NCBI RefSeq assembly: GCF_000008565.1
Contig: NC_001264.1
Span: 127,418 to 159,417, forward strand
DNA from: Deinococcus radiodurans R1 = ATCC 13939 = DSM 20539
GTDB taxonomy: Bacteria; Deinococcota; Deinococci; Deinococcales; Deinococcaceae
Length of the DNA: 32,000 nucleotides
Reading direction: 5' to 3'
A program made the position numbers and the translations under genes. The notes beneath the pieces were generated by a model, which did not search any database, was not told the DNA's origin, and saw only the letters and a list, made by a program, of their open reading frames with translations. Below are positions 1 through 22,101 of the stretch, piece by piece. Position 1 is the first letter of the stretch. Each line of letters opens with the position of its first letter.

Positions 1-797
1 ATGTACGGCACGGGCGTCTCCAGCACCCGCCCCAACACCGAGAGTTCGTGCGCGTAGTCGTGAACCAGCAGCACCGCCGCGCTGCGCTCGTCGAGCGGCG
101 GCAGCTCGAGTTCCTGACCGTTCTCCACCGGGTAAAAGGTATGCACGTCCGGCCAGCGCTCGGGGGTCAGCCGCTCGGGGTGGTCGTCGGTAAGGGCCAC
201 CCGCATCCCCACCGTGCGGGCAAGGCGGGCGAGTGGGCGGGCCACCGGGCCGGAGCCCACGATGAGCAGCCGGAAGGGGGCCGGCCACACTTCGCGCAGT
301 TGCTCGTCCTCGCCGCTGCCGACGCGCTCGACCCGCTGCTCGCCGGCGCCTTCCGGCAAGGGGGCCAGCACGGTCGGCCCGGGTCGGCCCAGCGGTGTCA
401 GCAGCAGCATCCCCTCACCTGCCTCGCGCCGCCGGGCGGCGGCCTGCCACACGGGGTCGGCGGGCGACATCGGCCAGAGCAGCACCTCGGCCTGCCCGGC
501 GCAGGTCATGCCGAACTCGTAGGCCTCGTCGCTGCCGAGGTCTACCCGGACGCGCTGGCTCCGGCGCTCCCGCCGCACGTCCTCGGCCACCTGCCGCAGC
601 TTGCCGTCGGCGCAGCCGCCCAGCGTGACCGAGCCGCGAATCTCGCCGCCGGGCAAAAACCATGCCCGCCGCCCCAGCGCCTTGCCTGAGCCGCTCGCGT
701 CGATCAGGGTCGCCAGCACCAGTTCGCCTGCTCGGTCCGCACCTTCGGCACTCAGCGCGGCGCAGGTGTACAGAAAATCGTCGAGTGTTTCGTCCAT
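1..797 (-). CDS. XdhC/CoxI-family maturation factor (first ~265 codons; 3' end lies beyond the left edge)
   Basis: Absent from the track because there is no stop in the window. Reverse-strand ATG at 797-795 follows GGGGAG. My translation reads MDETLDDFLYTCAALSAEGADRAGELVLATLIDASGSGKALGRRAWFLPGGEIRGSVTLGGCADGKL, and later FRLLIVGSGPVARPLARLARTVGMRVALTDD. That matches an XdhC N-domain plus a Rossmann-like GxGxxA domain. Confidence 0.7.
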   Translation of the reverse strand, partial: MDETLDDFLYTCAALSAEGADRAGELVLATLIDASGSGKALGRRAWFLPGGEIRGSVTLGGCADGKLRQVAEDVRRERRSQRVRVDLGSDEAYEFGMTCAGQAEVLLWPMSPADPVWQAAARRREAGEGMLLLTPLGRPGPTVLAPLPEGAGEQRVERVGSGEDEQLREVWPAPFRLLIVGSGPVARPLARLARTVGMRVALTDDHPERLTPERWPDVHTFYPVENGQELELPPLDERSAAVLLVHDYAHELSVLGRVLETPVPY

Positions 798-872: not shown

Positions 873-1469
873 TCAGCCCGCCGCGCCCTCGCGCTCGAAG
901 AGGTCGAGCCGGTAGCCCTGCGTCTCATCGCCGTGGCGCTCGCCGTGCAGGTGCCGCAGGCCGTGGCCCACGCGCCGCAGCGCCGCCTCATGCACCGCGT
1001 CGCCGGTCTGGGGATAGTCGTGGACGGTGGGCGTCCAGTGAACCAGCAGCAGCGTGCCGCCGGGAGACAGCCGCGCCAGCACGGCGTCCAGCGCCCGCTC
1101 CAGGTGGGCGGGGGAGAGGTAATACAGCACCTCCGAGAGCAGCACCAGGTCGAAGGGCCCGGCGGGCAGGTCGTCCGGCAGCCCCCGGCGCTCGAAGTGC
1201 ACCTGCGGCAGCCCGGCGCAGCGCTGGCGGGCGCGGGCAAGCGCCTTGTCGTTGACATCCGTCGCCACCAGTTCGCGTGTTCGGGGCGCGAGCTGCGCCG
1301 TCAGCACGCCGATGGAGCAGCCGACTTCGAGCGCCCGCGCGTACTCGGGCCGGGGCAACGCAGCGAGGGTGCGGGCGTACTTGGCCGCCTCGTAAGGACT
1401 CGTCTCGAACTCCCAGGGGTCGTCGCTGGCGCCGTAGACATCGTCGAAATAGCTGGGGGGCAGGGTCAT
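873..1469 (-). CDS. class I SAM-dependent methyltransferase, NodS-like (small-molecule type)
   Basis: 198-aa track ORF. Motif I is ALEVGCSIGVLT, followed by the acidic loop ELVATDVN, then FDLVLLSEVLYYL and TLLLVHW. No DNA-methyltransferase DPPY/NPPY or PCQ motifs. Confidence 0.8.
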   Translation of the reverse strand: MTLPPSYFDDVYGASDDPWEFETSPYEAAKYARTLAALPRPEYARALEVGCSIGVLTAQLAPRTRELVATDVNDKALARARQRCAGLPQVHFERRGLPDDLPAGPFDLVLLSEVLYYLSPAHLERALDAVLARLSPGGTLLLVHWTPTVHDYPQTGDAVHEAALRRVGHGLRHLHGERHGDETQGYRLDLFEREGAAG

Positions 1470-1496
1470 AGCTAGGTGTTAGCGCATGCGGGCGAC

Positions 1497-1545
1497 TGAG
1501 ACAAATAGGGATGCTTGGGACAAATAAAGCTGGTTGGGACAAAGC
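1497..1545. promoter_or_regulatory. three direct repeats TG(A/G)GACAAA spaced exactly 19 bp, in the divergent intergenic region
   Basis: TGAGACAAATA starts at 1497, TGGGACAAATA at 1516 and TGGGACAAAGC at 1535. They lie between the methyltransferase start (1469) and the likely helicase start (1609). Confidence 0.4.
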
Positions 1546-1608
1546 GCCGACGCTCAGCCCCACCCGACAGGTGATGCAGAGACGGTCTCCATCCTGAATA
1601 CTGACAAG

Positions 1609-4221
1609 ATGACCAGAGTCCACCGGCGTGGTTTCGTCACCTATCCTTTGCCCGAAGCGCGGCTGTATCCCTCACACAAGGTGCCCGCCGCGCATCAGGA
1701 AGACGCCCTGAAGTCGCTGCGGCGGTGGTCGAGTGCTCAGCGGCAGGTCAGCGGCGGCATTCTGGTCCTGCCCACCGGCGGGGGCAAGACCTTCACGGCC
1801 ACCCGCTTTCTCACTGAGGGGCCGCTGTCCAGGGGTCACAAGGTCATCTGGCTGGCCCACACCCACCACCTGCTCGATCAGGCGTTCGGGGGCTTCGGGC
1901 CGGACGCGGCGGGGCGCTACGAAATCGGTCACGTGGGCGGTGAGCAGCAGCGGCTCACCCTGCGGACCGTGTCGGGCACCCTCGGCCACGGCAAGGTCGC
2001 GGAAATCAAGCGCACCGACGACGTGCTCATCATCACGCTGCAAACCCTGGCCCGCGCCCTGAACGCCCGGGTCCACGCGGGCCTGCGCGGCTTTCTGGAC
2101 GAGGCCCGCCAGACTGGGCTAACCGTCGTGTTCGACGAGTGCCACCACGCGCCCGCCCCCACCTTTCGCAGGTTGATCGAGGGCCTGCGCGGCGCGGTGC
2201 CCGAGCTGCACCTGCTGGGGCTGACCGCCACGCCCACCTACACCGACGAGCGCCGACAGGGCCTGCTGAAAAAGCTCTTTCCTCAGGGCATCCTCTATCA
2301 GGTCAGCCCGCAGGAGCTGATGCTGGCGGGCATTCTCGCCCGGCCCATCGTCGAGGAACCCGCCACCCACATCAGCCCGGACTTTACTGAGCAGGAGTAC
2401 CGCGACTGGCAGGGCAGCTACCGCGACCTTCCCGAAAAGGTCATTGCCCACCTCGCCAGCAACCGCGCCCGCAACGCCCTGATTGCCGACACCTACGCCC
2501 AGAACCGCGAGCGCTACGGCCAGACCATCATCTTCGCCGACCGCTGGTATCAATGCACGGCGCTGGTCGAGCTGCTGCGTCAGCGGGGCGTGCGTGCCGA
2601 CGCGATTTTCACCCACCGGGACGCCGACCCCGGCACGGTGGACGTCCGCAACGCCCGCTCGGCAGACGAGAACGAGACGGTGCTGGCCCAGTTCAAACGC
2701 GGCGAACTCGACGTGCTGGTCAATATCCGCATGCTGACCGAGGGCACCGATGTGCCGGGCGCCCAGACGGTGTTTCTGACCCGGCAGACCACCAGCCGCA
2801 TCCTGCTGACCCAGATGGTCGGGCGGGCGCTGCGGGGCCCGAAATTCGGCGGGACTGAGGAGGCCTACGTGGTGTCCTTTATCGACGACTGGAAGCAGCA
2901 CATCAACTGGGCGCGCTGGGACGACCTGCTCAGTCAGGAGGTGGACGACCAGACCCGCGAGGCGGCGCCAAGGTTGCCCGTCGAACTCGTCAGCATCGAC
3001 CTCATCGCCCACCTCGCCCGCGAACTCGACCCGCAGGACCTGGTGGAGGTGCCCTTCCTGACCCTGCTGCCGCTCGGCTGGTACGTCGTGAGCTACGACG
3101 CCGCCGTCCAGCCCAGGGTAGAGGCCACCCCGGAAGACGAAAACGCCGAGCAGGCCGAACCGGGCGACGATATCGAGACGGTGCGCCAGCTCATTCCGGT
3201 CTACAGCCAGGACCAGGCGAGCTACCTGCGGATGTTTCAGGAACTCGACCAGGTGCGGCTCGACGACTTCGGAGAGGTTGAACTCGGCGAGGCCGCCCAG
3301 CAAAACGTGCGGGGCTGGGTGCAGGCGTATTTCGCGGCGGGCGAACGGCTGACCCGCCTGCAAGACGACGTGCAGTCGGTGGTGCGTCACCGCGCCATCA
3401 ACGGGAGCTGGCCGGCCTTCACCCCCTTCGAGGCCCGTAAAAACCACGACATTGACGCCCTGGCGCAACGCCTCGCCTTCGACGAACAGTTGTCGCGGGT
3501 GGCGGAAAACGCGGCCTTGCGCCAGGAATTCAGCGATGAGGGCCGACTCTGGGGAACGCTGTACCGCAACTACGACCAGTTCAAGCGCCAGTACGACGCC
3601 AGCGTGAATCGCCTGCTGTACCTGCGCGAAAACCCCGAACTCGTGCCGGTGCTCGGTGACGGAGAGGACGACTTTCAGCCCGCCGAGGTGTCGGCTGAGG
3701 TCAAGAAAGCCATTCGCAAGCGTGACCGCGTGTGCCTGTGCTGCGGCAAGCGGACCCAGTTGCAGGTGGATCACATTCAGTCGCGCTATGCGGGCGGCAC
3801 GCACGACCTCGACAACCTGCAACTGCTGTGCCAGGTCTGTAACAACCTCAAGGGCACCCGCGAAATGAACTTCCGGCAGCACGTTTCGCCGCTCACTTCG
3901 GGCGCGCAGGTGCAGGTTAACGCCGACCTGCTGTTCCGGCGCACCGCCGTTCGGGCCGAAGACAATCTGTTTACCCTGCTGTGCCGCAACGTCAATATGG
4001 GCCTGGAATGCCACGCCGTGGCAGACGTGCGTTATGTCGCAGCGACCAAGCGGCGCCCAGCCCACTGTGAAATCGCGTTGTATGAGGGCAACGACCCGGC
4101 CTGGGTCCAGCCCCTGCTCGACCGGGCGTTTACCCTCTGGAAGCGCGACAACCCGAACTTCGCGCAGACGTTCGCCGATTCGGCGCAGATTGTCGGTGTC
4201 CGGCCTTTACCGGAAAAGTAA
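1609..4221 (+). CDS. SF2 (ResIII/DEAH-like) helicase fused to a C-terminal HNH nuclease
   Basis: The track ORF opens at TTG 1534; the only in-frame ATG is at 1609. Helicase motifs: I LPTGGGKTF (1771-), II DECHH (2134-2148), III LTATP, V TEGTDVPG, VI QMVGRALRG (2812-2838). HNH: CLCCG..VDHIQS..NLQLLCQVCNNLKG (about 3730-3860) with two Cys pairs. Confidence 0.9.
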   Translation: MTRVHRRGFVTYPLPEARLYPSHKVPAAHQEDALKSLRRWSSAQRQVSGGILVLPTGGGKTFTATRFLTEGPLSRGHKVIWLAHTHHLLDQAFGGFGPDAAGRYEIGHVGGEQQRLTLRTVSGTLGHGKVAEIKRTDDVLIITLQTLARALNARVHAGLRGFLDEARQTGLTVVFDECHHAPAPTFRRLIEGLRGAVPELHLLGLTATPTYTDERRQGLLKKLFPQGILYQVSPQELMLAGILARPIVEEPATHISPDFTEQEYRDWQGSYRDLPEKVIAHLASNRARNALIADTYAQNRERYGQTIIFADRWYQCTALVELLRQRGVRADAIFTHRDADPGTVDVRNARSADENETVLAQFKRGELDVLVNIRMLTEGTDVPGAQTVFLTRQTTSRILLTQMVGRALRGPKFGGTEEAYVVSFIDDWKQHINWARWDDLLSQEVDDQTREAAPRLPVELVSIDLIAHLARELDPQDLVEVPFLTLLPLGWYVVSYDAAVQPRVEATPEDENAEQAEPGDDIETVRQLIPVYSQDQASYLRMFQELDQVRLDDFGEVELGEAAQQNVRGWVQAYFAAGERLTRLQDDVQSVVRHRAINGSWPAFTPFEARKNHDIDALAQRLAFDEQLSRVAENAALRQEFSDEGRLWGTLYRNYDQFKRQYDASVNRLLYLRENPELVPVLGDGEDDFQPAEVSAEVKKAIRKRDRVCLCCGKRTQLQVDHIQSRYAGGTHDLDNLQLLCQVCNNLKGTREMNFRQHVSPLTSGAQVQVNADLLFRRTAVRAEDNLFTLLCRNVNMGLECHAVADVRYVAATKRRPAHCEIALYEGNDPAWVQPLLDRAFTLWKRDNPNFAQTFADSAQIVGVRPLPEK

Positions 4222-4237
4222 GCTCTGTAGCGGCTGT

Positions 4238-4936
4238 TCAGGACGCCCCGCCGTCAAACCGCCGGAAATACCGCTCGGGCCCCGCCAGCGCCCGCGCCAC
4301 CATCTCCGGCGCAAGGACGAAGCCGTCCGGGTCGTCGGCAATCAGCCCCAGTTGTGTGCGGTGCGAGGCAATGGCGCGGGCTTTGGCATCTCGCCAGTCG
4401 CCTACCGCGAAGGTCAATTCCTCGACCTCGTCGGGGCGCGGCCAGTCGGCGTCGGCCCCGCGCTCGGGCAACCAGACGGCATATTCCAGGGCCAGGGTGT
4501 CGGAAGGAAGAACGCCGCGCAGCAGGTGCCAGGCGGCGCGGTGGTCAGGGTGCGGGTCGCGTTCCCAGGGCAGCAACACGGTGCCGGGCCGGGCCTGCGC
4601 GAATGCTTGCCGCACCTGGGCGCGGGCGGCAGCGGTGAGGTGCTCCCCCAGCGCCCCGTCAGGCAGCCCCAGCGCGACAGTTCGGGCCGGGGGCACACCC
4701 AGCACGCTCAGGCCCTCGCGCCACTCTGCCAGCCGCACAGCGCTCAGGCGGGGCCGGGGGTAAGCCTTTGAAGCGGGGTGGGAAAAGCCGCCGTCGGTCA
4801 GGAGGAGCGCCCAGACCTCGCGCCCCGCCTCCGCAAGTGCCGCCAGCAGTGCCCCGCAGCCGAGCGCCTCGTCGTCGGGGTGCGGGGCCACCACCCACAG
4901 CGGGCCGGACAGCGCGAGCGGGTCGAGAGGCGTCAT
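4238..4936 (-). CDS. PIG-L/LmbE-family N-acetylglucosaminyl deacetylase
   Basis: 232-aa ORF with the family signature VVAPHPDDEALGCG near the N-terminus, plus downstream HPDH. Its stop is 16 nt from the convergent helicase stop. Confidence 0.85.
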   Translation of the reverse strand: MTPLDPLALSGPLWVVAPHPDDEALGCGALLAALAEAGREVWALLLTDGGFSHPASKAYPRPRLSAVRLAEWREGLSVLGVPPARTVALGLPDGALGEHLTAAARAQVRQAFAQARPGTVLLPWERDPHPDHRAAWHLLRGVLPSDTLALEYAVWLPERGADADWPRPDEVEELTFAVGDWRDAKARAIASHRTQLGLIADDPDGFVLAPEMVARALAGPERYFRRFDGGAS

Positions 4937-4972: not shown

Positions 4973-5965
4973 TCAGCACGAAGCGGCCCAGGTCGAGGCG
5001 CGCCGCGTCGGGCGCAGGTGGCGCAGGTAAAGCCGCAGGTCGCGCAGCAGCCGCTCGGTGGGCGCGGGCGGCAGCAGGCCACGCGCCCCCACCGCCCGCT
5101 CCGCCGCCTCGCAGGCGAGCAGGCAGGCGTCCTCGGTCAGCACACGGGCGATGGAGACGTAAGCGAGGGAGCGTTCCAGGTCGCTGCCTTGCGCCGTGTC
5201 AAGCTGCCGCTGTGCCCGCAACACCGTCTGCCACGCGCCTTCCAGTCGGGCCGCGACCTCGGCGAAACGCAGGCGCTGCACGTCGTCGTGCTGCCGCCCC
5301 AGCCGCTGCAAGGTGGCCCGCGCCGCGTCCAGCACCGCGTCCGCCCCGCCGAGCTGCGCGGCGAGAAACCGCAGGGCGCCGCCGCTGAAGTCCGGTTGCC
5401 GGTAGTAGTCGCCCGGCTGACCAATGATGTCTTTCACGCCTACACGCAGCCCCCCGAGGTCCACCCGCTCGCTGACCGTTGCCCGCATCCCGGCAGGCTG
5501 CCAGAAAGACGGGTCGAAGCGCTCCGGCGCGGGCGCCCCCGGCAGCAGCACCATCACCCGGCCCGCGTCTGTCTCGGCGGGGCACAGTGCGCGGGTCACG
5601 TGCCCGGCGCCTGACGCGAAGGTCTTGTGGCCGCTCAGCACACCGCCGCTGCCTTCCGAATTGTGAGGCAGCCGCACCCCCGGCGCTTCCTCGGTGTTCC
5701 AGACGCCGAAGAGTTCCCCGGCCTGCGCGTCTGAGGCGGCCCGTTGCCGCTGCTCAGGCGTGCCGAAGCGCAGCACGAGGTCGAGGGCGTTGACGTGCCC
5801 CTCGTATAGCCGCGCAACCGGCAGGCTCAGCCGCCCCAGCCGCCGCAGCAGGGGCACACGGTCATGGGTGCCTAGCCCACCGCCGCCGAGGGCCGCAGGC
5901 AAAGTAGCCACCAGCAGACCAGCTTCCTGCAAAGCCGCAAACGCCGCCACTGGGAAAGCCCGCAC
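4973..5965 (-). CDS. acyl-CoA dehydrogenase-family protein, apparently frameshifted at both ends as sequenced
   Basis: The 330-aa ORF starts at GTG and reads FPVAAFAALQEAGLLVATLPAALGGGGLG...GHKTFASGAG...RDLRLYLR. It is about 50 aa shorter than the usual ~380 aa. N- and C-terminal continuations are visible in other frames (see findings). Confidence 0.7.
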   Translation of the reverse strand: MRAFPVAAFAALQEAGLLVATLPAALGGGGLGTHDRVPLLRRLGRLSLPVARLYEGHVNALDLVLRFGTPEQRQRAASDAQAGELFGVWNTEEAPGVRLPHNSEGSGGVLSGHKTFASGAGHVTRALCPAETDAGRVMVLLPGAPAPERFDPSFWQPAGMRATVSERVDLGGLRVGVKDIIGQPGDYYRQPDFSGGALRFLAAQLGGADAVLDAARATLQRLGRQHDDVQRLRFAEVAARLEGAWQTVLRAQRQLDTAQGSDLERSLAYVSIARVLTEDACLLACEAAERAVGARGLLPPAPTERLLRDLRLYLRHLRPTRRASTWAASC

Positions 5966-7275
5966 GGCGTCAGCTGCGGAGCTTCGGCCTGCACCACTGG
6001 CGCCAGAGCGTCGAGCCGGGCCAGTGCCTCGGCCAGCGTGCGCGGCGGTGTGGGGAAAGCCGCCTGCGTCTCAGCCACAGTCGCTTCGGCGCGGCCCCAG
6101 TCCCACGTTTGAGCCTGCCGCAGCGCTTCCCATAACACGGGGTCGGCGGGCCGCTCGCCCTGCGCGTCGGGGTAGTCCCACAGCCCGTTGTGGCAGTGGC
6201 GGTCGTCGTCCCAGCCGGGGTGGTTGACGATGGGATAGAGGCACACCCCCTCCACCGGCACCCCGTCGCGGCGGGCATCAAGCGCGGCCCCAGCCACGTA
6301 GCTCAGCCACTCGCCGCGCTCGGCGTTCTCGGTGCCGGTCTCCGCGATCAGCAGGGGCCGCCCGTAGCGCTGCGCTGCGGCGCTCAGCAGCTCGGGTAGG
6401 GGCCGGTGTGCCGGATGGCCCGGCAACAGCGTTTCGCGCGGTTCCTCGTTTTCGTGGTGGCGCCACTGGTTGTAGGGGTAATAATTGACGCCGATCACGT
6501 CCAAGTAGCGCTCATGGCCGCCGAGGTCGGGCCGCAGCCGCCCGCTCAGCATGTCGAGCGCCTCGAACTGCGCTTCGTGCAGCTCGCGGGCGCGCTTTTC
6601 CTGCCAGGGGCGCTCGGGGTGATGGTCCACCACGATCAGCGGCTCGGCGTGTACGAATCGCACCGCCGGGTCCATCTCCCGCGCCGCGTCCATGGCCGAG
6701 ATGGCCGCGCGCACGAGCTGCGCCTTGAGCTCCTCACCCCGGTCCCGGACAAAGGGGTTGAGGTAGCCCACCTCGCCCCCGCCCCACGCCAGAAAGGAAA
6801 TCTCGTTGACCGGGCACAGCCACAGCGTGCCGGGCGTCTCGGCCCGCAAAAACTGCGTGGCGGCGCGGGCAAAGCGGGCAAACACAGCCGGAAACTCTGG
6901 CGCGAAGAGGTCCACGAAATCGGGAAACCCGTAGTGCAGCAGGTCCCAGATGACGCTCACGCCCTGCTCGCGGGCCGCCCGGACCTGAGCACGGGCACTG
7001 GAAAAGTCGTATTCGCCGGGCGAGCGCTCGATCAGGTGCCAGCGCAGCCCGTCGCGGGCGCCCGCAATGCCCACCGCCCGCAGTCGGGCGTAGTCCTGCG
7101 CGGCGAAGTGGTCGTGCCGGGTGGCGTCAATCACGTCGATGCGGCGCCCCGAGGGCCGGCGGTGGCTGCTGCACTCGAAGCCGCCGAGAAAAAAGCTGGG
7201 AAAGAGCGGTGAGTCCGGCGCCGCCCCCCGGCCCTGGGCTGCCGACGCGGAAAGCTCCGGTGAAAAGGCACACAT
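5872..7275 (-). CDS. clan GH-A (GH1-like) TIM-barrel glycoside hydrolase-like protein
   Basis: 467-aa ORF with N-terminal FFLGGFECSS. Candidate acid/base Glu in LCPVNEISF and candidate nucleophile Glu in LLIAETGTEN. The last ~35 aa (Cys/Trp/Leu/Arg-rich) overlap the next gene and look out of frame. Confidence 0.7.
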   Translation of the reverse strand: MCAFSPELSASAAQGRGAAPDSPLFPSFFLGGFECSSHRRPSGRRIDVIDATRHDHFAAQDYARLRAVGIAGARDGLRWHLIERSPGEYDFSSARAQVRAAREQGVSVIWDLLHYGFPDFVDLFAPEFPAVFARFARAATQFLRAETPGTLWLCPVNEISFLAWGGGEVGYLNPFVRDRGEELKAQLVRAAISAMDAAREMDPAVRFVHAEPLIVVDHHPERPWQEKRARELHEAQFEALDMLSGRLRPDLGGHERYLDVIGVNYYPYNQWRHHENEEPRETLLPGHPAHRPLPELLSAAAQRYGRPLLIAETGTENAERGEWLSYVAGAALDARRDGVPVEGVCLYPIVNHPGWDDDRHCHNGLWDYPDAQGERPADPVLWEALRQAQTWDWGRAEATVAETQAAFPTPPRTLAEALARLDALAPVVQAEAPQLTPCGLSQWRRLRLCRKLVCWWLLCLRPSAAVG

Positions 7276-12487: not shown

Positions 12488-13306
12488 TCAGGGCCGGCCC
12501 AGACGGCGCCGCGCCCCCACGCTCAGCGCCGCGCACGCGAGCGGCAGGGCGCTGCGGGTGCCGCCCAGCACCGCACTCAGCGCGAGGCCGCCCAGCGCCA
12601 GTTGCCGGGACCGCTGTACCCTCTCAGTGGAGATGGTCTGGTCGCCCCGGTCGGTTTCGGTGGTCACGTCCTCGGGTTCAAGCAGGCTGGGGGCCAGCAG
12701 CAGAGCGCCCGCGATGGCCGCGCTGCCGAGCGACTGTCGCCCGCCTTCCCGCGTCGCTGCGATGGTCGGCAACAGCGCCGCGAGCAGGGCTGCCGGACCA
12801 CTGACCGCGCTCTGGGGCGCCAGGTCGTCGCCCTGCTGACTCGACAGGGCCAGCGCCGCGCCGGGCAGCAAGGCCGCTGCTTTTTGCCCCGCTCCGGCAC
12901 ACATGGCCGCCGCCGCGCCGAGTGCCGCTTCGTCGCCTGCTGTGGCCGCCGCGCCGGTGGTCGCACTCAGGGTCCGCACGCTGCTCAGCGCGGTAAACGC
13001 CGCGAGCACCTCGCTCAGCACCGCCGCGTCGCTGTTGTCCTCGCTCAGCAGCGAAAGCGCCAGGGTGAGCGGCAGCGCGGCGTTGGCGGTGACGGCATGG
13101 TCCGGGTCGAGTTCCCGCGCGCATGCCCAGGCCGCAAAGGCACTCAGGCCCGTGCCCGCGCTCCCCACCCACGAGCGCCCCCGCAGCCGCCCGAGCGCCA
13201 CGCCGCCCAGCAGTCCCAGCATCGCCCAGCGGTTGGACGGGTACGAGAGGTCAATGGTGCGCGGCAAAGCGGCGGGCAACAGTCCCGATGAAGATGCAGA
13301 AGTCAT
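12488..13306 (-). CDS. hypothetical Ala/Leu/Gly-rich membrane protein
   Basis: 272-aa ORF with strongly GC-biased third codon positions and several hydrophobic stretches. The opposite-strand ORFs are Arg/Pro junk. No motif recognised. It lies 47 nt upstream of the receiver gene on the same strand. Confidence 0.5.
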   Translation of the reverse strand: MTSASSSGLLPAALPRTIDLSYPSNRWAMLGLLGGVALGRLRGRSWVGSAGTGLSAFAAWACARELDPDHAVTANAALPLTLALSLLSEDNSDAAVLSEVLAAFTALSSVRTLSATTGAAATAGDEAALGAAAAMCAGAGQKAAALLPGAALALSSQQGDDLAPQSAVSGPAALLAALLPTIAATREGGRQSLGSAAIAGALLLAPSLLEPEDVTTETDRGDQTISTERVQRSRQLALGGLALSAVLGGTRSALPLACAALSVGARRRLGRP

Positions 13307-13453
13307 GTGCTCAGCGTAGAAGCTGCGATTCGCTTTTGGGGACAGGCCAGCTCAAGACAACGTTGGGGTTTGCGTCGGAAATGGAGGCGAGGACGAGCTC
13401 CTTTTCACGGATCAAAGCTGCTTTTCCAGCTTGTTTAATACCTTCGGACCATC

Positions 13454-13481
13454 AAAGAAAAAACCGCGTGCAGGACGCGGT
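13454..13481 (-). terminator. rho-independent terminator of the 144-aa gene
   Basis: The minus strand reads ACCGCGT-CCTGC-ACGCGGT followed by TTTTTTCTTT. Stem at 13463-13469 / 13475-13481, with the A-tract at 13454-13463 on the plus strand. Confidence 0.75.
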
Positions 13482-13509
13482 ATCATGTGCTCTTTGTAAC
13501 GACTCGGGC

Positions 13510-13944
13510 TTACTTCTTTTTCAGGCTCTTCTGCTTGCGCGAGTTGCCGAGCTGTTGCCCACGGTTGTATTTGGATTCCATGCTGCGGCGGGTTTCTTCC
13601 ACCAGCGCCTTGAAATCGACTTCGCCCGCTTCCACTGCTTCCAGGCTGAGCACCACTTTGGAGTTGCCGCCGCGAGTATTGATCTTGCCCAGGTCTTCGC
13701 TGGCCTGCTTGATCCACTTGTCGCTCTTGGGCGTCACTTGAAACACCATGTCGCGGGTATCACGTTCATAGCTGCCTTCAGCGCCGCGGCGATGGTACTG
13801 CTTGGGCAGGGTAAAACGTTCCTTGAGTTCGATGGCGTCAATATCACCCTCACGCACAGCGTTGCGAAACATCTTCACAAAGCGGTCGCTCTGCTGAGGG
13901 TTTTCAAGTTCCATCACAACTTCACTGAGTTTCCTGAATTCCAT
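13510..13944 (-). CDS. hypothetical 144-aa highly charged protein with a basic C-terminal tail
   Basis: Clean ORF MEFRKLSEVVMELENPQQSD...NSRKQKSLKKK in a visibly lower-GC stretch, followed by a strong terminator. A TACATT -10-like hexamer sits 6 nt upstream of the ATG. No family recognised. Confidence 0.7.
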   Translation of the reverse strand: MEFRKLSEVVMELENPQQSDRFVKMFRNAVREGDIDAIELKERFTLPKQYHRRGAEGSYERDTRDMVFQVTPKSDKWIKQASEDLGKINTRGGNSKVVLSLEAVEAGEVDFKALVEETRRSMESKYNRGQQLGNSRKQKSLKKK

Positions 13945-14073
13945 GCGGGCAATGTAACATGCGCCAGCTCCGTTCGTGTCATTGGGCTGGCCTTAAGATG
14001 TCAGGGGCTGGCACGCTGTCAAAAGCTCTCTACTTTTGTTACCCGGCGAATCTTTTTTGCCCTCGATTAATGA

Positions 14074-14101
14074 CAAAACGAAAATGGCAGCTTCGTTGCC
14101 A
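14074..14101 (-). terminator. weak terminator-like hairpin just after the TetR stop
   Basis: The minus strand reads TGGCA-ACGAAGC-TGCCA followed by TTTTCGTTTTG. The stem is only 5 bp. Confidence 0.35.
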
Positions 14102-14105
14102 AAGT

Positions 14106-14780
14106 TCAATCGAGAGACGCTTGCTTTTCCTGCTCCTGAATCTGTGTTTTGATGCCGGCCAGCATCAGTTCGAGGGCCACCTCAAAAAAATCGTCCTCGT
14201 TTTCTGAGGCGGCGGGCATCGGCAAACTCAGCGCGAGGGGAAAGCGCTCGGGCTGCCGCTCGGCGAAGGCTCGGCGCTGGGCGAAGGCGCTGGGGGCGAA
14301 GTTGCCGTTGAGTTCGGCGTAGCAGAAGCCGACCATGAAAATCACCAGAACACTGCCGTACTTGGTGATGACCTCTTCGGGCAGCCCGACCTGACGCAGC
14401 AGCCGGTACAGCGACTCGTACACGTCGAGTTCCTCTCTGCTCACGCGGTGGCCGCGAAAGTAATAGCCGATAAAACTGGCGTGCCGCACCATGCTGCGCC
14501 TCAGGCTGTGGGCCAGCCGGCTGAAGCGCTCCTGCCAGCTGCCTTCGTTGAGGTCGGGCAGCTCCAGCTCACGCAAAATCTCGCTGTAGACGCCCTGGAG
14601 CAGGTCTTCTTTGGTGGGAAAGTAGTGGTAGAGGCTCTTGGGGCTGACGCCCAGTTCGGCAGCCAGTTTGCGGATGCTCAGGCCGTCGAGCCCGTCGCGG
14701 TGCAGCGTATCCAGAGCCTGACGAGTGATTTTCTCGGCGCTCAGCAAGGGGGCGCCGGCAGGAGGACGTGCCATGTCCAC
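14106..14780 (-). CDS. TetR-family transcriptional regulator
   Basis: The N-terminal HTH ITRQALDTLHRDGLDGLSIRKLAAELGVSPKSLYHYFPTKEDLL is a canonical TetR_N domain. The gene is divergent from the 3-hydroxyacyl-CoA dehydrogenase gene. Confidence 0.9.
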   Translation of the reverse strand: MDMARPPAGAPLLSAEKITRQALDTLHRDGLDGLSIRKLAAELGVSPKSLYHYFPTKEDLLQGVYSEILRELELPDLNEGSWQERFSRLAHSLRRSMVRHASFIGYYFRGHRVSREELDVYESLYRLLRQVGLPEEVITKYGSVLVIFMVGFCYAELNGNFAPSAFAQRRAFAERQPERFPLALSLPMPAASENEDDFFEVALELMLAGIKTQIQEQEKQASLD

Positions 14781-14789
14781 TAATTTACC

Positions 14790-14798
14790 ACACAGTGT
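14790..14798. promoter_or_regulatory. palindrome ACAC-A-GTGT, candidate TetR operator half of a pair
   Basis: ACACAGTGT lies 10 nt upstream of the TetR start codon. A near-identical ACACGGTGT occurs at 14925-14933. Confidence 0.3.
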
Positions 14799-14886
14799 TG
14801 AATAAATCTTAACCCATCCTTACCTTAACAGCAGAAGAGGCGTCTGGGACGCTGAATTCGGCAAATTCGGGCAAGAATGCGCCGCC

Positions 14887-14933
14887 TTGACGCGCCTCCG
14901 AGTGTGGAGTAGGTTGGGTTTGTTACACGGTGT
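14887..14933 (+). promoter_or_regulatory. sigma70-like promoter TTGACG-17nt-TAGGTT followed by palindrome ACAC-G-GTGT
   Basis: TTGACG at 14887-14892, a 17-nt spacer, then TAGGTT at 14910-14915. ACACGGTGT (14925-14933) sits just downstream, where a repressor would block initiation. Confidence 0.3.
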
Positions 14934-14965
14934 GTGGTTAGCGAAACTGCGGCCCACACCCAGTC

Positions 14966-15001
14966 GTTCACCGGCTGCTTTCGTGGAGCCGCCCGGTGAA
15001 C
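14966..15001 (+). other. perfect 9-bp stem hairpin in the putative 5' leader
   Basis: GTTCACCGG (14966-14974) pairs with CCGGTGAAC (14993-15001) across an 18-nt loop, about 40 nt upstream of the start codon at 15040. Confidence 0.3.
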
Positions 15002-15039
15002 TTGCCTCCCTTCCACGTGGTGCAAGACAGGAGAGCAGC

Positions 15040-15930
15040 ATGAGCATCAAGACAGTTACGGTGTGCGGCAGCGGCGTTCTCGGTTCGCAAATCGCTTTTC
15101 AGACCGCTTTTCACGGCTTCGACGTTCACCTCTACGACATCAACGACGCCGCCATCGCCAAGGCCCGCGAAACGCTCGGCAAGTTGCAGGCCCGCTACCA
15201 GCAGGACCTGAAGGTGGACGCCCAGCAGACCGGCGACGCCTTTGCGCGCATCAGCTTTTTCACCGACATTGCCGAAGCCGTCAAGGGTGTGGACCTCGTT
15301 ATCGAAGCCATTCCTGAGAACATGGACATCAAGCGCAAGTTCTACAACCAGCTAGGTGAGGTGGCTGACCCGAACACCATCTTCGCCACCAACTCCAGCA
15401 CCTTGCTGCCCAGCCAGTTCATGGAAGAAACCGGGCGCCCCGAGAAGTTCCTGGCGCTGCACTTCGCCAACGAAATCTGGAAGTTCAACACCGCCGAAAT
15501 CATGCGCACGCCCAGGACCGATGACGCCGTGTTCGACACGGTGGTGCAGTTCGCCAAGGACATCGGCATGGTGGCGCTGCCCATGTACAAGGAGCAGGCC
15601 GGCTACATCCTGAATACGCTGCTGGTGCCGCTGCTGGGCGCCGCGCTGGAACTGGTCGTCAAGGGCATCGCCGACCCGCAGACGGTGGACAAGACCTGGA
15701 TGATCGCGACCGGCGCGCCGCGTGGGCCGTTCGCCTTCCTGGACGTGATCGGCTTGACCACGCCCTACAACATCAACATGGCGAGCGCCGAGACCAATCC
15801 CGGCAGCGCCGCCGCCGCCAAATACATCAAGGAAAACTACATCGACAAGGGCAAATTGGGCACCGCGACCGGCGAGGGCTTTTACAAGTACCCCAATCCG
15901 GCCTTCGAGAGCGCCGACTTCCTGAAATAA
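15040..15930 (+). CDS. 3-hydroxyacyl-CoA (3-hydroxybutyryl-CoA) dehydrogenase
   Basis: The track ORF is over-extended to 14887. ATG 15040 follows AGGAGAG. Rossmann motif VTVCGSGVLGSQIA, then VIEAIPENMDIKRKF, HFANEIW and the C-terminal dimerisation domain GPFAFLDVIGL. Confidence 0.9.
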   Translation: MSIKTVTVCGSGVLGSQIAFQTAFHGFDVHLYDINDAAIAKARETLGKLQARYQQDLKVDAQQTGDAFARISFFTDIAEAVKGVDLVIEAIPENMDIKRKFYNQLGEVADPNTIFATNSSTLLPSQFMEETGRPEKFLALHFANEIWKFNTAEIMRTPRTDDAVFDTVVQFAKDIGMVALPMYKEQAGYILNTLLVPLLGAALELVVKGIADPQTVDKTWMIATGAPRGPFAFLDVIGLTTPYNINMASAETNPGSAAAAKYIKENYIDKGKLGTATGEGFYKYPNPAFESADFLK

Positions 15931-15953
15931 CCCCTGCGTTTCCTACAAGAAGT

Positions 15954-15973
15954 CCAAGTCACACCCAAGTCAC
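15954..15973 (+). promoter_or_regulatory. direct repeat CCAAGTCAC x2 with an 11-bp period, plus a partial third copy
   Basis: CCAAGTCAC at 15954-15962 and 15965-15973, then CCAAG at 15974. This is 60-80 nt upstream of the ATG at 16033 and is followed by the GC hairpin GGGCG..CGCCC (about 15989-16009). Confidence 0.3.
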
Positions 15974-16032
15974 CCAAGGGTAGGTTGAGGGCGCGGAACG
16001 TCTCCGCCCCTCACTGCCAAAGGAGATTGATC

Positions 16033-16764
16033 ATGAGTCAGAACCAGAAATCCAGTGATACCGGTGACAAATCGGCCAGCGAACGCTTGGCGGCGCTGAA
16101 GCTGGCGCTCCAGAACGACCTGCGCGACGCGCCCATCATGGCGAAAGTGGCGCTGGAAAACCTGTTCAACCGCGACGATTCCGATTCCGGACCCGCGGTG
16201 AAGTCGGCAGGTCGCGTGGGCCGTCAGCAGGGCAAGGTCTCCGAGCTGACCGCCATGGCCGACCTGAAACCCGGCGGCGCGGATCACCTGCGGCGCATTC
16301 TGGAACTGATCGGCGGCAACATGTCGGGCGCTCGCAAGGTCGGCACCGTGCATGACATGCGCTTCGTGATTTTCGACGACGACAAGAAAATCCTGTTCTG
16401 CACCGCCTACGACGGCGACTGGGACACCTACATCGAGGACTTTGCTACCAAGATTCCCGACCTGATGGACCTGCTGTTCGCCAACGTGGAAGGCTGGCCC
16501 GGCATCCACTCGCCCGAAGTCAAGGACTTTATCGCCAGCCACCAGCTCACCGCCGACGGCTGGTACGTGGACGCGCCCTACCTGACGGTGGTCGAAACCC
16601 GCCGCGTACAGGAAAACCAGCAGGCGCTCGAAACCTTTATGGACGAGTACAGCAAGACGGCCAAGCCGGTAGACGACATGAGCGAAGCCGAACTGCGCGC
16701 AAGCCAGAAGAAGCTTCAGGAGTTCTTGCAGAAGGTAGGGACCGCCAGCAGCGGGGTTGCCTGA
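16033..16764 (+). CDS. conserved-looking hypothetical protein (243 aa), coupled to the DyP gene
   Basis: ATG 16033 follows AAAGGAG. The core is VHDMRFVIFDDDKKILFCTAYDGDWDTYIEDFATKIPDLMDLLF. Its stop (16762-16764) is 1 nt from the DyP ATG (16766). No family name recalled with confidence. Confidence 0.75.
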   Translation: MSQNQKSSDTGDKSASERLAALKLALQNDLRDAPIMAKVALENLFNRDDSDSGPAVKSAGRVGRQQGKVSELTAMADLKPGGADHLRRILELIGGNMSGARKVGTVHDMRFVIFDDDKKILFCTAYDGDWDTYIEDFATKIPDLMDLLFANVEGWPGIHSPEVKDFIASHQLTADGWYVDAPYLTVVETRRVQENQQALETFMDEYSKTAKPVDDMSEAELRASQKKLQEFLQKVGTASSGVA

Positions 16765-16765
16765 G

Positions 16766-18139
16766 ATGACGCTGTTCAAAAAGCTGCGTGAGCTGGTTCA
16801 TCACAACGACAAGATCGACCTCGATCTGGACGATATTCAGGCGACCGTCTTGCGCGAGCGGCCCGAGCCCTACTACGGCACCCATGCCATGGTGCGCTTC
16901 GACACGGCGGAAGGCGGGCGCGAGCTCCTGAAGCGCCTGCTGCCGCACATCGCCTCCGCCGAGAAGTGGTGGGACGTGAAATATGCCTGGACCGCCGCCG
17001 CCATCAGCTACGAAGGGCTGAAAAAGCTGGGCGTGCCGCAAGACTCGCTCGACAGCTTTCCCGAGTCGTTCAAAGTGGGAATGGCAGGCCGCGCTGAGCA
17101 CCTCTTCGATGTGGGCGAGAACGATCCCAAGCACTGGGAAAAGCCCTTCGGCACCGGACAGGTTCACCTCGCGCTGACCATTTTCGCTGAGAACGAAGAG
17201 AACTGGCAAAAGGCCCTGGTCATCGCCGAGCACGAGCTTGAGGCGACCAAAGGTGTGACCTTGCTGATGCGCGAGGATTTCGGCGCGCAGCCCGACAGCC
17301 GCAACTCGCTGGGCTACAAGGACATGATCAGCAACCCGGCCATCGAGGGCAGCGGCATCAAACCATTCCCTGGGCAGGGGCCGGCCATCAAACCCGGCGA
17401 GTTCGTTCTAGGTTATCCCGGCGAAGCGGGCGTACCTTTGGGGATGCCCAAGCCCGAGGTGCTGGGGAAAAACGGCACCTTCGTGGCGCTGCGCAAGTAC
17501 CACACCAACGCGGGCAGCTTCAACCGTTACCTCAAGGAAAATGCCGAGTACACCGGCGGCGACGCCGAGCTCTTGGCCGCCAAACTGGTCGGACGCTGGC
17601 GCAGCGGCGCGCCCCTGACGTTGGCTCCCAAGGAAGACGACCCCGAGCTGGGCCACGACCCCAACCGCAACAACGACTTCACCTACAAAAACGACCCGGA
17701 AGGGTTGGAAGTGCCGCTGGGCTCGCATATCCGCCGCATGAACCCGCGTGACACCAAGCTGGAACTGCTCACCGACGTGAACATCCACCGGATTATTCGC
17801 CGCGCCACGGCGTATGGCCCCGCCTATGACCCCAAGGCCGACAGCCTGGCGGAAGACAAGGTCGAACGTGGCCTGTACTTCATCTTCATCAGCGCCAAGG
17901 CGATGGACACCACCGAGTTCCTGCAAAAGGAATGGATCAACAAGGCGAACTTCATCGGACAGGGCAGCGAGCGCGACCCGATTGTGGGCCTCCAGGACGA
18001 AGACCTGACCTTCACCCTGCCCAAAGAGCCGGTGCGCCAGCGCCTGCGCGGGATGGACACGTTCAACGTGCTGCGCGGCGGCGAGTACCTCTTCATGCCC
18101 AGCCTCTCGGCGCTGAAGTGGCTGAGTGAACTGAAGTAA
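16766..18139 (+). CDS. DyP-type heme peroxidase
   Basis: N-terminal LDDIQATVL. GYKDMISNP matches the GxxDG-type distal Asp motif. GSHIRRMNPRD carries the proximal His, IIRRATAYG the distal Arg, and RGLYFIFISA..EFLQKEWIN is present. The track start at TTG 16757 is less likely than the ATG at 16766. Confidence 0.9.
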   Translation: MTLFKKLRELVHHNDKIDLDLDDIQATVLRERPEPYYGTHAMVRFDTAEGGRELLKRLLPHIASAEKWWDVKYAWTAAAISYEGLKKLGVPQDSLDSFPESFKVGMAGRAEHLFDVGENDPKHWEKPFGTGQVHLALTIFAENEENWQKALVIAEHELEATKGVTLLMREDFGAQPDSRNSLGYKDMISNPAIEGSGIKPFPGQGPAIKPGEFVLGYPGEAGVPLGMPKPEVLGKNGTFVALRKYHTNAGSFNRYLKENAEYTGGDAELLAAKLVGRWRSGAPLTLAPKEDDPELGHDPNRNNDFTYKNDPEGLEVPLGSHIRRMNPRDTKLELLTDVNIHRIIRRATAYGPAYDPKADSLAEDKVERGLYFIFISAKAMDTTEFLQKEWINKANFIGQGSERDPIVGLQDEDLTFTLPKEPVRQRLRGMDTFNVLRGGEYLFMPSLSALKWLSELK

Positions 18140-18180
18140 AGCCGCTGAAGGTTCAAGCCCATTCAACAACAGGAGGAAGT

Positions 18181-19266
18181 ATGAATTACGTCAAATATAC
18201 CCCGAACATCGAAGTCAAGCAGCCCAACGAGGACGAGCAGATCGACAAGATTGTCGAGATGATGCACGCGGCCAACGTCAAGGCCTTCGACAAGCACCGC
18301 CACGGCATCCGCGACGCGCACGCCAAGCAGCACGGCACGGTGGTCGGCACGCTGGAAATTCCCGAACTGCCTGAGCACCTCGCCCAGGGCCTGTTCGCCA
18401 AGCCCGGCAGCTACCCGGTGGTCATCCGGTTTTCCAGCGCGCCCGGCGAACTCAAGGACGACAGCGTGCCGGTACCGCACGGCATGGCCGTCAAGGTGAT
18501 CGGCGTGCCCGGCAAAAAGATTTTGCCCGACAAGCAGGACGAAGTGACGCAGGACTTCCTGATGGTGACCATGCCGGTCATTCCCTTCGGTGATGTCGAG
18601 CAGTACCTGAAGATGCAGAACGTGGTCGCGTTGCAAGACAGCACCTCGGAAGAAGGGCAGCGGGCCTTTGCGGCGCTCGCCCGTGGCGGGCAGAAGGTGC
18701 TGGGTCTGCTCGGCATCAGCGACCCCACGCTGGACGGCATCGCTGCCGAGAACGAGCACCTGCTCGGCCAGACCTACCACACCATGGCGGCCATTCGTTA
18801 CGGCGACTACATCGCCAAAATCAGCGCCGCGCCGCTCTCGCCCGAAGTGAAGGCGCTCGAAGGTCAGATTCTGGACACCAAGAAGAGCCCTTCGGCCCAG
18901 CGTGACGCTCTGGTAGACTTTTTCCACAAGCACGGCGCCGAGTACCAGCTGCGCGCCCAGCTGTGCACTGACCTCGAAAAGATGCCGATTGAAGACGCCT
19001 CGGTCGAGTGGGACGAAAAGCTCTCGCCCCAGCAGCCGATTGGCCGCCTCATCATTCCGCAGCAGGAAGCCTACAGCCCGGCCCGGCGCGTCTTTTCCGA
19101 CGACAAGCTGGAGTTCAACCCCTGGCACGCCCTGCCCGAGCACCAGCCGCTCGGCTCCATCATGCGCGTGCGTATCAAGGCCTACGAATCCTCCACGGCC
19201 TTCCGTCACGCCATGAACGTGCAGCCGCGCGTGGAACCCAGGGACATCAGCGAAATTCCGCAGTAA
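18181..19266 (+). CDS. catalase-related mini-hemoprotein (~40 kDa, catalase core only)
   Basis: 361 aa, with AGGAGGA upstream. FDKHRHGIRDAHAKQHG aligns with the catalase distal-His motif (FDRERIPERVVHAKG). RIKAYESSTAFRH aligns with the proximal-Tyr motif (R..sY.dt...R). Confidence 0.85.
   Translation: MNYVKYTPNIEVKQPNEDEQIDKIVEMMHAANVKAFDKHRHGIRDAHAKQHGTVVGTLEIPELPEHLAQGLFAKPGSYPVVIRFSSAPGELKDDSVPVPHGMAVKVIGVPGKKILPDKQDEVTQDFLMVTMPVIPFGDVEQYLKMQNVVALQDSTSEEGQRAFAALARGGQKVLGLLGISDPTLDGIAAENEHLLGQTYHTMAAIRYGDYIAKISAAPLSPEVKALEGQILDTKKSPSAQRDALVDFFHKHGAEYQLRAQLCTDLEKMPIEDASVEWDEKLSPQQPIGRLIIPQQEAYSPARRVFSDDKLEFNPWHALPEHQPLGSIMRVRIKAYESSTAFRHAMNVQPRVEPRDISEIPQ

Positions 19267-19330: not shown

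Positions 19331-22093
<2,763 letters not shown>

Positions 22094-22101
<8 letters not shown>

Follow-up and report, generated by a model that had tools for sequence, protein, structure and literature searches.

Several described systems join a helicase motor to a nuclease. SauUSI, an ATP-dependent and modification-dependent Type IV restriction enzyme (structure 7clg), combines an N-terminal PLD nuclease, a helicase of the ResIII/DExH branch of superfamily 2 (SF2) and extra C-terminal domains, among them a DUF3427/SRA-like modified-cytosine domain, in a single polypeptide that needs no methyltransferase. PbeA joins an HKD nuclease to an SF2 helicase and is encoded in a CxC-ABC/DndE operon (PMC10853773), and Hna is a DinG/XPD-like SF2 helicase with a C-terminal PD-(D/E)XK exonuclease acting 3'-5' on single-stranded DNA (PMC13381803). 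In HmaA, DdmD, Nhi and DruE, all found in defence islands, a motor is fused to or paired with a nuclease (PMC11232893), and CasDinG-HNH, a Type IV-A CRISPR variant, couples a helicase to a C-terminal zinc-knuckle HNH of the McrA/IscB/Cas9 type (PMC11981726). A comparable fusion is also found in the eukaryotic annealing helicase ZRANB3, a fork-remodelling enzyme that holds a motor and a C-terminal HNH in one chain. Here we compare these systems with DR_A0131, a gene of Deinococcus radiodurans R1 that encodes an SF2 helicase fused to an HNH nuclease and lies in the stretch of 32,000 nucleotides of chromosome II that we analysed (NC_001264.1, positions 127,418 to 159,417; hereafter the window). 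We put forward that the DR_A0131 family is probably an uncharacterised, horizontally mobile, single-protein and ATP-driven helicase–HNH defence enzyme acting against phage or plasmid DNA. The original prediction had left defence and repair as equal choices; the comparative evidence leans to the former, given the patchy distribution of the family, its lack of synteny, its surroundings of BREX, DISARM, restriction-modification (R-M) and Type IV genes, the insertion of the D. radiodurans copy into an operon and the swapping of modules, and the latter is poorly supported. The fusion in DR_A0131 has been known since 2001 and is not itself new. What is new is a coherent mobile family, often residing in defence islands, with a private acidic domain and exchangeable modules.

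The maximal open reading frame (ORF) in the ORF list of the window begins at a TTG at 1534 and runs to 4221 on the plus strand. However, the true start is likely the ATG at 1609, which gives an 870-aa protein (gene 1609..4221, +), because RefSeq annotates it so and homologues align from residues 1-12 of this form; the 895-aa TTG form corresponds to the old R1 annotation (AAF12227.1/Q9RZ22), being 25 residues longer and identical across the 870 aa. Residue numbers below refer to the 870-aa form, and Pfam calls were judged against gathering scores. The product is 100% identical to WP_027479745.1, encoded on the 412-kb second chromosome of D. radiodurans. Since the gene order relative to DR_A0119, the published description and the cysteine content all agree, the gene is DR_A0131; in particular, the 870-aa sequence contains the 10 Cys and 2 CXXC motifs counted previously (PMC5867870). 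With window DNA at 68% GC, long ORFs occur by chance. The GC content at third and second codon positions of the DR_A0131 ORF (GC3 0.85, GC2 0.43) follows the coding pattern of the D. radiodurans genome, and together with the invariant catalytic residues described below this indicates that the plus-strand ORF is real. No coding GC3 pattern is seen in an antisense ORF of 648 aa within the gene (2119..4065, -), which is a shadow ORF of the sort that high-GC DNA typically contains. As a possible mark of foreign origin the GC content is ambiguous, at 65-68% for DR_A0131 and 71-73% for its flanks, the mean of the D. radiodurans genome being about 67%.

All the motifs quoted in the original prediction were found in this ORF, which does encode helicase and HNH in a single polypeptide. 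Three Pfam domains, ResIII, Helicase_C and HNH, score above their gathering thresholds (table 1), the nuclease being recognized by two models (PF01844, 47.2 bits against a cut-off of 21.4; PF14279, 31 against 27.5). The motifs I, II, III and VI and the two RecA-like domains place the motor in the SF2 ResIII/DExH group, and the catalytic His and Asn residues place the nuclease in the HNH superfamily, with a two-CxxC zinc ribbon like that of the McrA/Cas9-type subgroup. Among 40 aligned homologues sharing 42-76% identity, GGGKT, DExHH, TATP and QMxGRALRG are invariant, as are H722, N736 and N745 and the zinc-ribbon cysteines C709, C712, C741 and C744, with D721 present in at least 90%. Foldseek comparison of the modelled HNH domain returns McrA, Gme-HNH and Cas9/Cas5-HNH as resembling it, with near-certain to certain match probability for McrA, Gme HNH and Cas9 HNH. 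By residue pattern, both the SF2 ATPase core and the HNH active site of DR_A0131 are intact.

As anticipated, no named family fits the whole protein, and the matches in PADLOC v2, NCBIfam and the PDB sequence search are all partial. By sequence, the closest relatives of the SF2 core are the double-stranded DNA translocases SauUSI/PbeA, RadD, XPB and the Type I/III R subunits. In PDB, SauUSI (7clg) is the best sequence match (E 3.3e-10), followed by XPB and RadD, with ZRANB3, IscB and Cas9-type HNH domains matching the nuclease. PADLOC-DB v2.0.0 gave no full-length system match and only partial helicase or HNH matches, namely PbeA over residues 290-424 (135 residues, 76 bits, E 4.5e-22), mREase_IV over residues 140-431 (about 1e-12) and PtuB on the HNH. 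Like SauUSI, DR_A0131 is a single polypeptide with a nuclease, a motor of the same SF2 branch and extra C-terminal domains, with no need for a methyltransferase. However, its nuclease is a C-terminal HNH, with no PLD match, and a counterpart of the modified-cytosine domain was found neither by Pfam in 24 members nor by Foldseek against PDB; one rare family variant, described below, does carry an N-terminal PLD/HKD nuclease. PbeA has operon partners, whereas the DR_A0131 family has no conserved neighbour. Hna, the best-known single-protein helicase–nuclease system, is of similar overall design, being a single-gene abortive-infection system of about 850 aa with an N-terminal SF2 helicase, a C-terminal nuclease and a broad, patchy distribution, and its ATP-dependent autoinhibition, lifted by a phage protein (PMC13381803), is a possible model for the present family. 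Nevertheless, DR_A0131 has a ResIII/SauUSI-like helicase with an HNH, and its best helicase matches are SauUSI, XPB and RadD rather than DinG; the two families are analogous, not homologous. HmaA, DdmD, Nhi and DruE differ in their helicase clades (SNF2, SF1 and YprA) and PD-(D/E)XK-type nucleases, and most of them need partners. CasDinG-HNH belongs to the DinG clade, is RNA-guided and CRISPR-associated, while no CRISPR linkage was seen for the DR_A0131 family.

Repair is the standing label of DR_A0131 in the literature, since the fusion was noted in 2001 and repair tables later took it up. The passage of PMC10614293 that cites Makarova et al. 2001 describes DRA0131 as the fusion of a RAD25-like helicase domain with an endonuclease domain; the gene is tabulated as the D. 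radiodurans homologue of ERCC3/XPB and YejH in repair-gene inventories (PMC2587704), is carried as Rad25/XPB/YejH in DNA-repair tables (PMC2587704, PMC5867870) and is listed among repair genes in PMC10614293 also. It would then be a repair or replication-fork-processing helicase–nuclease, as a Rad25/XPB/ERCC3 or YejH/RadD homologue or an analogue of ZRANB3, aiding the damage tolerance of Deinococcus. In agreement with this, the best NCBIfam match of DR_A0131 is RadD (E 1.3e-16), XPB/Rad25 models match as well, and XPB, RadD and the ZRANB3 HNH are among the PDB sequence matches. However, the likeness to XPB/Rad25 and RadD/YejH lies in weak matches to generic SF2 DExH motor motifs, the RadD match being confined to residues 173-422, and the scores fall 10-20 fold under the curated cut-offs (RadD/YejH NF053632, 60 against 720 bits; XPB, 30.1 against 610, and rad25, 20 against 328.7; NF045503, TIGR00603), with no family-specific features detected. 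XPB/Rad25 and RadD/YejH themselves have no HNH and are vertically inherited. In the case of ZRANB3 the HNH domains are similar (5mkw, E 0.0012), but its motor is of the SNF2 type and is accompanied by PCNA/ubiquitin-binding modules, and the SNF2 model scores 17.2 bits on DR_A0131 against a cut-off of 26.7. A pattern resembling the radiation/desiccation-response motif occurs 8 times in the window, where 7.6 matches are expected by chance, and none of these is close to DR_A0131 or at its promoter; this is a weak test. The repair label of DR_A0131 is therefore poorly supported, and we consider a repair function unlikely. The distribution and genomic setting of the family, described below, speak against it too.

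Between the motor and the nuclease, and after the nuclease, lie the two regions to which the original prediction could assign no domain, a verdict that Pfam and structure searches uphold. Both regions exist, the first spanning about 298 aa from motif VI to the HNH (about 280 had been given) and the tail about 110 aa (given as about 120), and the start assigned at 1534 is the upstream TTG. No Pfam match was obtained in residues ~430-700 or 760-870 of DR_A0131 even at E<=1, and Pfam searches of residues 428-870 of 24 members at E<=10 returned scattered single matches only, which were treated as noise; one of these, EcoEI_R_C in the middle domain, occurred in 1 of 24 members (E 0.16). The proposed structure prediction and Foldseek search gave confident folds, recovered the HNH and left the rest with no significant match. 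In AlphaFold2 models built from a 24-sequence alignment, residues 428-700 have a mean pLDDT of 77.5, with the core at about 485-680 mostly above 90, and the first ~55 residues are ill-defined in a model that omits the helicase core; residues 686-870 reach 92.8 and form a canonical HNH followed by an alpha-alpha-beta-beta-alpha-beta domain. For the middle domain Foldseek found no match among PDB structures (best E 1.4) or viral structures (best E 0.076), and a PDB profile search returned only keratin and calmodulin at E>0.1. For the C-terminal domain (residues 761-870) no significant structural match was found with Foldseek; low-probability matches to ferredoxin-like folds (the MamM C-terminal domain, EscJ) were not accepted. 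We also examined the middle domain as a possible HD-phosphohydrolase (H594...H613-D614...D616), a candidate rejected as D614 is Asn in many members and no HD model or fold matched.

A profile of the middle region searched against 1.84 billion representative proteins retrieved only 438 at E<=1e-3, and all of them are either proteins of some 850 aa, with the region placed at about residues 420-700, or fragments of such proteins. By this measure the middle region is a family-private domain. Its invariant residues include G490-W491-Y492, R593-H594, E640 and W648, and it is strongly acidic throughout the members examined, with a median net charge of -13 (range -21 to -7); the helicase N-domain and the HNH, in contrast, are basic. 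Such uniform acidity argues against a DNA-reading role.

More than 3,000 clusters at 90% identity match DR_A0131 over its full length, and at least 495 GTDB species genomes encode a relative, from about 13 bacterial phyla and two archaeal families. Carriers include Deinococcota, Chloroflexota, Planctomycetota, Myxococcota, Cyanobacteria, Bacteroidota, Acidobacteriota, Armatimonadota, Gemmatimonadota, Atribacterota and Desulfobacterota-like lineages, and among archaea Methanotrichaceae and Methanobacteriaceae. They nevertheless make up well under 1% of species, scattered across two domains of life, and this patchiness is a further point against a repair function, as is the frequent location in defence islands. 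Within Deinococcus itself, D. rubellus is without the gene (PMC10614293), homologues elsewhere in the genus are non-syntenic and share none of the neighbours seen in the window, and transposases flank several copies. D. radiomollis has two copies, one on the chromosome and one on a 583-kb plasmid, each 56% identical to the query, and other homologues too reside on plasmids or megaplasmids.

This mobility raises the question of whether the gene serves a mobile element, either as a replication or packaging helicase with an HNH or as a selfish homing-type nuclease. Phage replication helicases do resemble the helicase core and connector (residues ~10-490, 25-29% identity), and transposases, plasmid RepA and a NERD-domain protein are found among the neighbours at some loci. 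However, the phage similarity extends to core and connector only. Moreover, no match covering at least 80% of DR_A0131 exists among 50,697 phage records, full-length copies occur in 2 of 72,556 plasmid records, both of them Deinococcus secondary replicons, and the middle-domain profile finds only the helicase–HNH architecture. As the D. radiodurans insertion also carries no integrase, transposase or terminal repeats (see below), we regard a function for the mobile element itself as very unlikely, and as the least probable of the explanations considered here.

Variants identified through the middle-domain profile add further modules to the common scaffold, an N-terminal protein kinase or, at the C-terminus, TPR, HEAT, Sel1, GyrA-C beta-propeller, HTH, DUF5679 and FGE-sulfatase domains. 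The variant mentioned above with regard to SauUSI (P0269, metagenomic, 1038 aa) has gained an N-terminal HKD/PLD nuclease of the SauUSI/PbeA kind and ends in a C-terminal DUF5679 zinc ribbon. Its HNH has decayed, the catalytic DH being replaced by SR and the final N by R (LQVDHI to LMVSRV, CNxxKG to CRAHKG), which looks like the replacement of one nuclease by another within one scaffold. A nuclease swap on a constant motor and middle domain, together with added protein-binding repeat sensors, is typical of immune proteins and unusual for housekeeping repair.

The genomic neighbourhoods of homologues were compared at 60 loci. All-versus-all BLASTP of 2,615 flanking ORFs revealed no neighbour family in more than 3 loci, and the largest common cluster (3 of 60) comprises close relatives only; the family is genuinely stand-alone. 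This agrees with the expectation that the gene has no methyltransferase, specificity or other partner, as none is co-oriented with it in the window and none is conserved across the 60 loci. Assignment as a Type I/III R subunit is likewise at odds with the lack of a cognate methyltransferase or specificity gene in the window, the lack of a recurrent neighbour and scores far under the curated cut-offs. The NCBIfam model dnd_restrict_1 scores 49 bits on DR_A0131 against a cut-off of 600.

Known defence genes often lie near homologues. Among individual loci, one homologue is accompanied by BrxE, BrxB and a PglX-type methyltransferase of BREX, another sits between PglW and PglX of a BREX type 2 system, and a third is followed by a DISARM-like SNF2/Eco57I/DEAD-MZB operon that begins at its stop codon, with WYL, HIRAN and RmuC upstream. 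Further loci hold a Type I R-M system with an AAA_15/21 ATPase and Nmad2/3; AIPR, an Eco57I-type giant and EVE-McrB/McrC; GmrSD and Mrr beside a transposase; or a 1,726-aa SF1 helicase–nuclease, whose architecture we take to resemble Gao's Hhe. A Type IIG/ISP giant lies near one homologue, a GmrSD-like Type IV protein is beside the plasmid copy of D. radiomollis, and other homologues adjoin Type IIG/DrmMI, a Type I methyltransferase or HmaC. The check for defence islands proposed with the original prediction thus found known defence genes within 10 kb in about 12-14 of 25 annotated loci, about half, a fraction that has no matched genomic control, often reflects annotation of the largest neighbours only and is to be read as a strong qualitative enrichment with no statistic attached. 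An aggregate PADLOC scan of 114 neighbours gave defence matches that could not be mapped to loci and was complemented by per-protein scans. A separate observation concerns Deinococcus cavernae, where a homologue adjoins a UvrD-like helicase, an IS3 transposase and a 1,714-aa giant (L004, 3908-9052) that combines an RNase_T exonuclease with DinG-type (DEAD_2/Helicase_C_2) and DEAD/Helicase_C helicase modules.

Some of these arrangements might suggest instead that the protein supplies nuclease and motor to a multi-gene system (R-M, BREX, DISARM or Dnd/Pbe-like), as a subunit with partners encoded elsewhere. The homologue at the DISARM-like locus is translationally coupled to the SNF2 gene by an overlap of start and stop codon, the position between PglW and PglX is suggestive, and the helicase resembles PbeA and dnd_restrict_1, which act in operons (PMC10853773). 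Yet the embedding systems vary from locus to locus, which fits independent defence genes that nest within other systems, no partner family recurs, and many loci, including that of D. radiodurans, are without a candidate partner within 10 kb. A subunit role is thus very unlikely, and a stand-alone enzyme is the better description of the family.

The D. radiodurans locus also points to mobility. In D. frigens an acyl-CoA-dehydrogenase-like (ACAD-like) gene, a PIG-L deacetylase gene and a NodS-like methyltransferase gene belong to one co-oriented operon in which stop and start codons overlap (ATGA for the last two genes), and the helicase–HNH homologue is on another contig. In D. radiodurans the same three genes lie on the minus strand, but 2,768 bp (1470-4237) part the PIG-L stop from the methyltransferase start, and this segment contains the helicase–HNH gene in the opposite orientation. 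By this comparison, DR_A0131 is inserted antisense exactly at the PIG-L/NodS junction. Neither terminal repeats nor a target-site duplication were found around the segment, where the search gave only a 7-nt inverted match at chance level, and no integrase or transposase is carried by it. Insertion into an unrelated operon, together with the absence of the gene from some Deinococcus species, also counts against a repair role, even though no defence genes lie near the D. radiodurans locus.

Taken with the preceding data, the evidence points to an accessory, inserted, defence-type gene rather than a repair gene, and the DR_A0131 family is a credible uncharacterised single-protein defence system that undermines the repair label. 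Several observations nevertheless weigh on the other side. The enrichment in defence genes is qualitative, as noted, and the surroundings of the D. radiodurans copy and of two of the eleven Pfam-annotated loci look like housekeeping ones. The helicase core shares similarity with RadD and XPB, which are helicases of repair, and ZRANB3 is a precedent for a helicase–HNH fusion acting as a repair enzyme. No functional study or characterisation of the helicase–HNH family was found in a literature search, and no PADLOC v2 model covers the whole protein, so that the family was missed by earlier defence screens in that database. Finally, the roles we give to the middle and C-terminal domains draw on charge and fusions only. 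DR_A0131 is not in the REBASE-derived list of R1 restriction systems.

With regard to mechanism, we envisage that the motor would load on DNA and that its ATP-driven movement or remodelling would bring the HNH to invader DNA for nicking or cleavage; to break both strands, the enzyme would have to dimerise or nick repeatedly. The acidic middle domain would more probably be an autoinhibitory, DNA-mimicking element or one docking a protein signal, and the C-terminal domain with the TPR, HEAT, Sel1, FGE, kinase or GyrA-C additions would supply sensing or DNA contact. Because there is no methyltransferase partner, two options are left for sparing self DNA. Recognition could be modification-dependent, as in Type IV systems, in line with the co-location with McrBC, GmrSD and Mrr, or a protein or DNA structure specific to the invader could switch the enzyme on, as with Hna. 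Combining these elements, the family might be an autonomous one-protein immune system in which a translocase and an HNH are restrained by the acidic domain and freed by an invader cue sensed via the C-terminal domain or the add-ons, with DR_A0131 serving a naturally transformable bacterium as a horizontally inserted barrier against foreign DNA and forming no part of the repair toolkit. We hold this fuller picture as possible, somewhat short of probable, and our confidence in the specific domain roles is much lower than in the defence role as such.

The reassignment would correct a 25-year-old annotation habit, as comparisons of Deinococcus repair inventories still enter DR_A0131 among the Rad25/XPB/YejH genes. 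It would also add a candidate defence family of compact size, a single gene of about 2.6 kb spread over bacteria and methanogenic archaea, with a pairing of ResIII-type helicase and HNH that is absent among characterised single-protein systems (Hna, Nhi, HmaA, SauUSI). Whether the private acidic domain serves autoinhibition or sensing is relevant to the way in which helicase–nuclease immune proteins spare self DNA. If the gene restricts incoming DNA, its deletion could ease the genetics of Deinococcus and other hosts.

Table 1. Features of DR_A0131 and the adjoining genes, in window coordinates.
Feature	Residues	Position	Strand	Remarks
Helicase–HNH gene, 870 aa + stop		1609..4221	+	DR_A0131 / WP_027479745.1
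SF2 RecA-like domain 1 (Pfam ResIII)	26-210	1684..2238	+	E 2.7e-19, 70.1 bits against a cut-off of 22.5
Motif I, GGGKT	57-61	1777-1791	+	motif I region begins at residue 55
Motif II, DECHH	176-180	2134-2148	+	
Motif III, TATP	206-209	2224-2235	+	
SF2 RecA-like domain 2 (Pfam Helicase_C)	296-409	2494..2838	+	E 4.5e-12, 46.6 bits against a cut-off of 23.5
Motif VI, QMVGRALRG	402-410	2812-2838	+	
Connector	431-484	2899..3060	+	low model confidence without helicase core; phage replication helicases align to about here
Conserved middle domain	485-680	3061..3648	+	beta-hairpin then helical bundle (model)
HNH (beta-beta-alpha-Me), CxxC...CxxC zinc ribbon	709-751 (Pfam HNH)	3709..3888	+	Pfam HNH E 2.5e-12
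HNH motifs	CLCC 709-712, DH 721-722, N736, CQVCNN 741-746			N745 catalytic
C-terminal alpha/beta domain	761-870	3889..4218	+	confident model; conserved R793, N796, G827-N828, W832
Inserted segment		1470..4237		helicase–HNH gene, opposite orientation, and 139 bp of upstream DNA
Direct repeats TGRGACAAAT(A)		1497..1545	+	two to three, 19-20 bp apart, in the 139-bp divergent methyltransferase/helicase–HNH promoter region
NodS-like class I SAM methyltransferase		873..1469	-	last gene of interrupted operon; small-molecule type, not a DNA methyltransferase
PIG-L deacetylase		4238-4936	-	upstream gene of interrupted operon
Acyl-CoA-dehydrogenase-like gene		4973-7275	-	upstream gene of interrupted operon

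The direct repeats in the divergent promoter region read TGAGACAAATA / TGGGACAAATA / TGGGACAAAG, and their arrangement makes them a possible operator or regulator site, or a promoter element that arrived with the inserted gene. A scan for sigma-70 promoters and intrinsic terminators found none, such a scan being uninformative for Deinococcus. In the interrupted operon, the ACAD-like gene of the window is broken into two ORFs (4973-5965 and 5872-7275) that overlap and lie in different frames, while the same gene is a single one of 779 aa in NZ_OV024759.1 and in a Logan contig. The coordinate offset shifts by 2 nt across this gene and the window therefore has a 2-nt indel, which is either the mark of a pseudogene or an error made in sequencing for the older assembly.

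Elsewhere in the window, the region 13000-19000 has a lower GC content (0.59-0.62 against 0.66-0.73) and may be a separately acquired island; it codes for a TetR regulator, a 3-hydroxyacyl-CoA dehydrogenase, a 259-aa unknown protein, a DyP-type peroxidase-like protein and a weakly catalase-like protein. The near-palindrome TTACCTTAACAGCAGAA (14820-14836), flanked by the divergent TetR gene (14106-14780, -) and 3HCDH gene (14887-15930, +), matches the pattern resembling the radiation/desiccation-response motif on both strands with 1 mismatch and is more likely a putative TetR operator than a radiation-response motif. At 19331-22101 (-), an aromatic amino acid (histidine) ammonia-lyase gene and a gene for an imidazolonepropionase-like amidohydrolase are probably part of a hut operon, and the overlap of their maximal ORFs (19331-21103 and 20902-22101) probably reflects an over-extended start.

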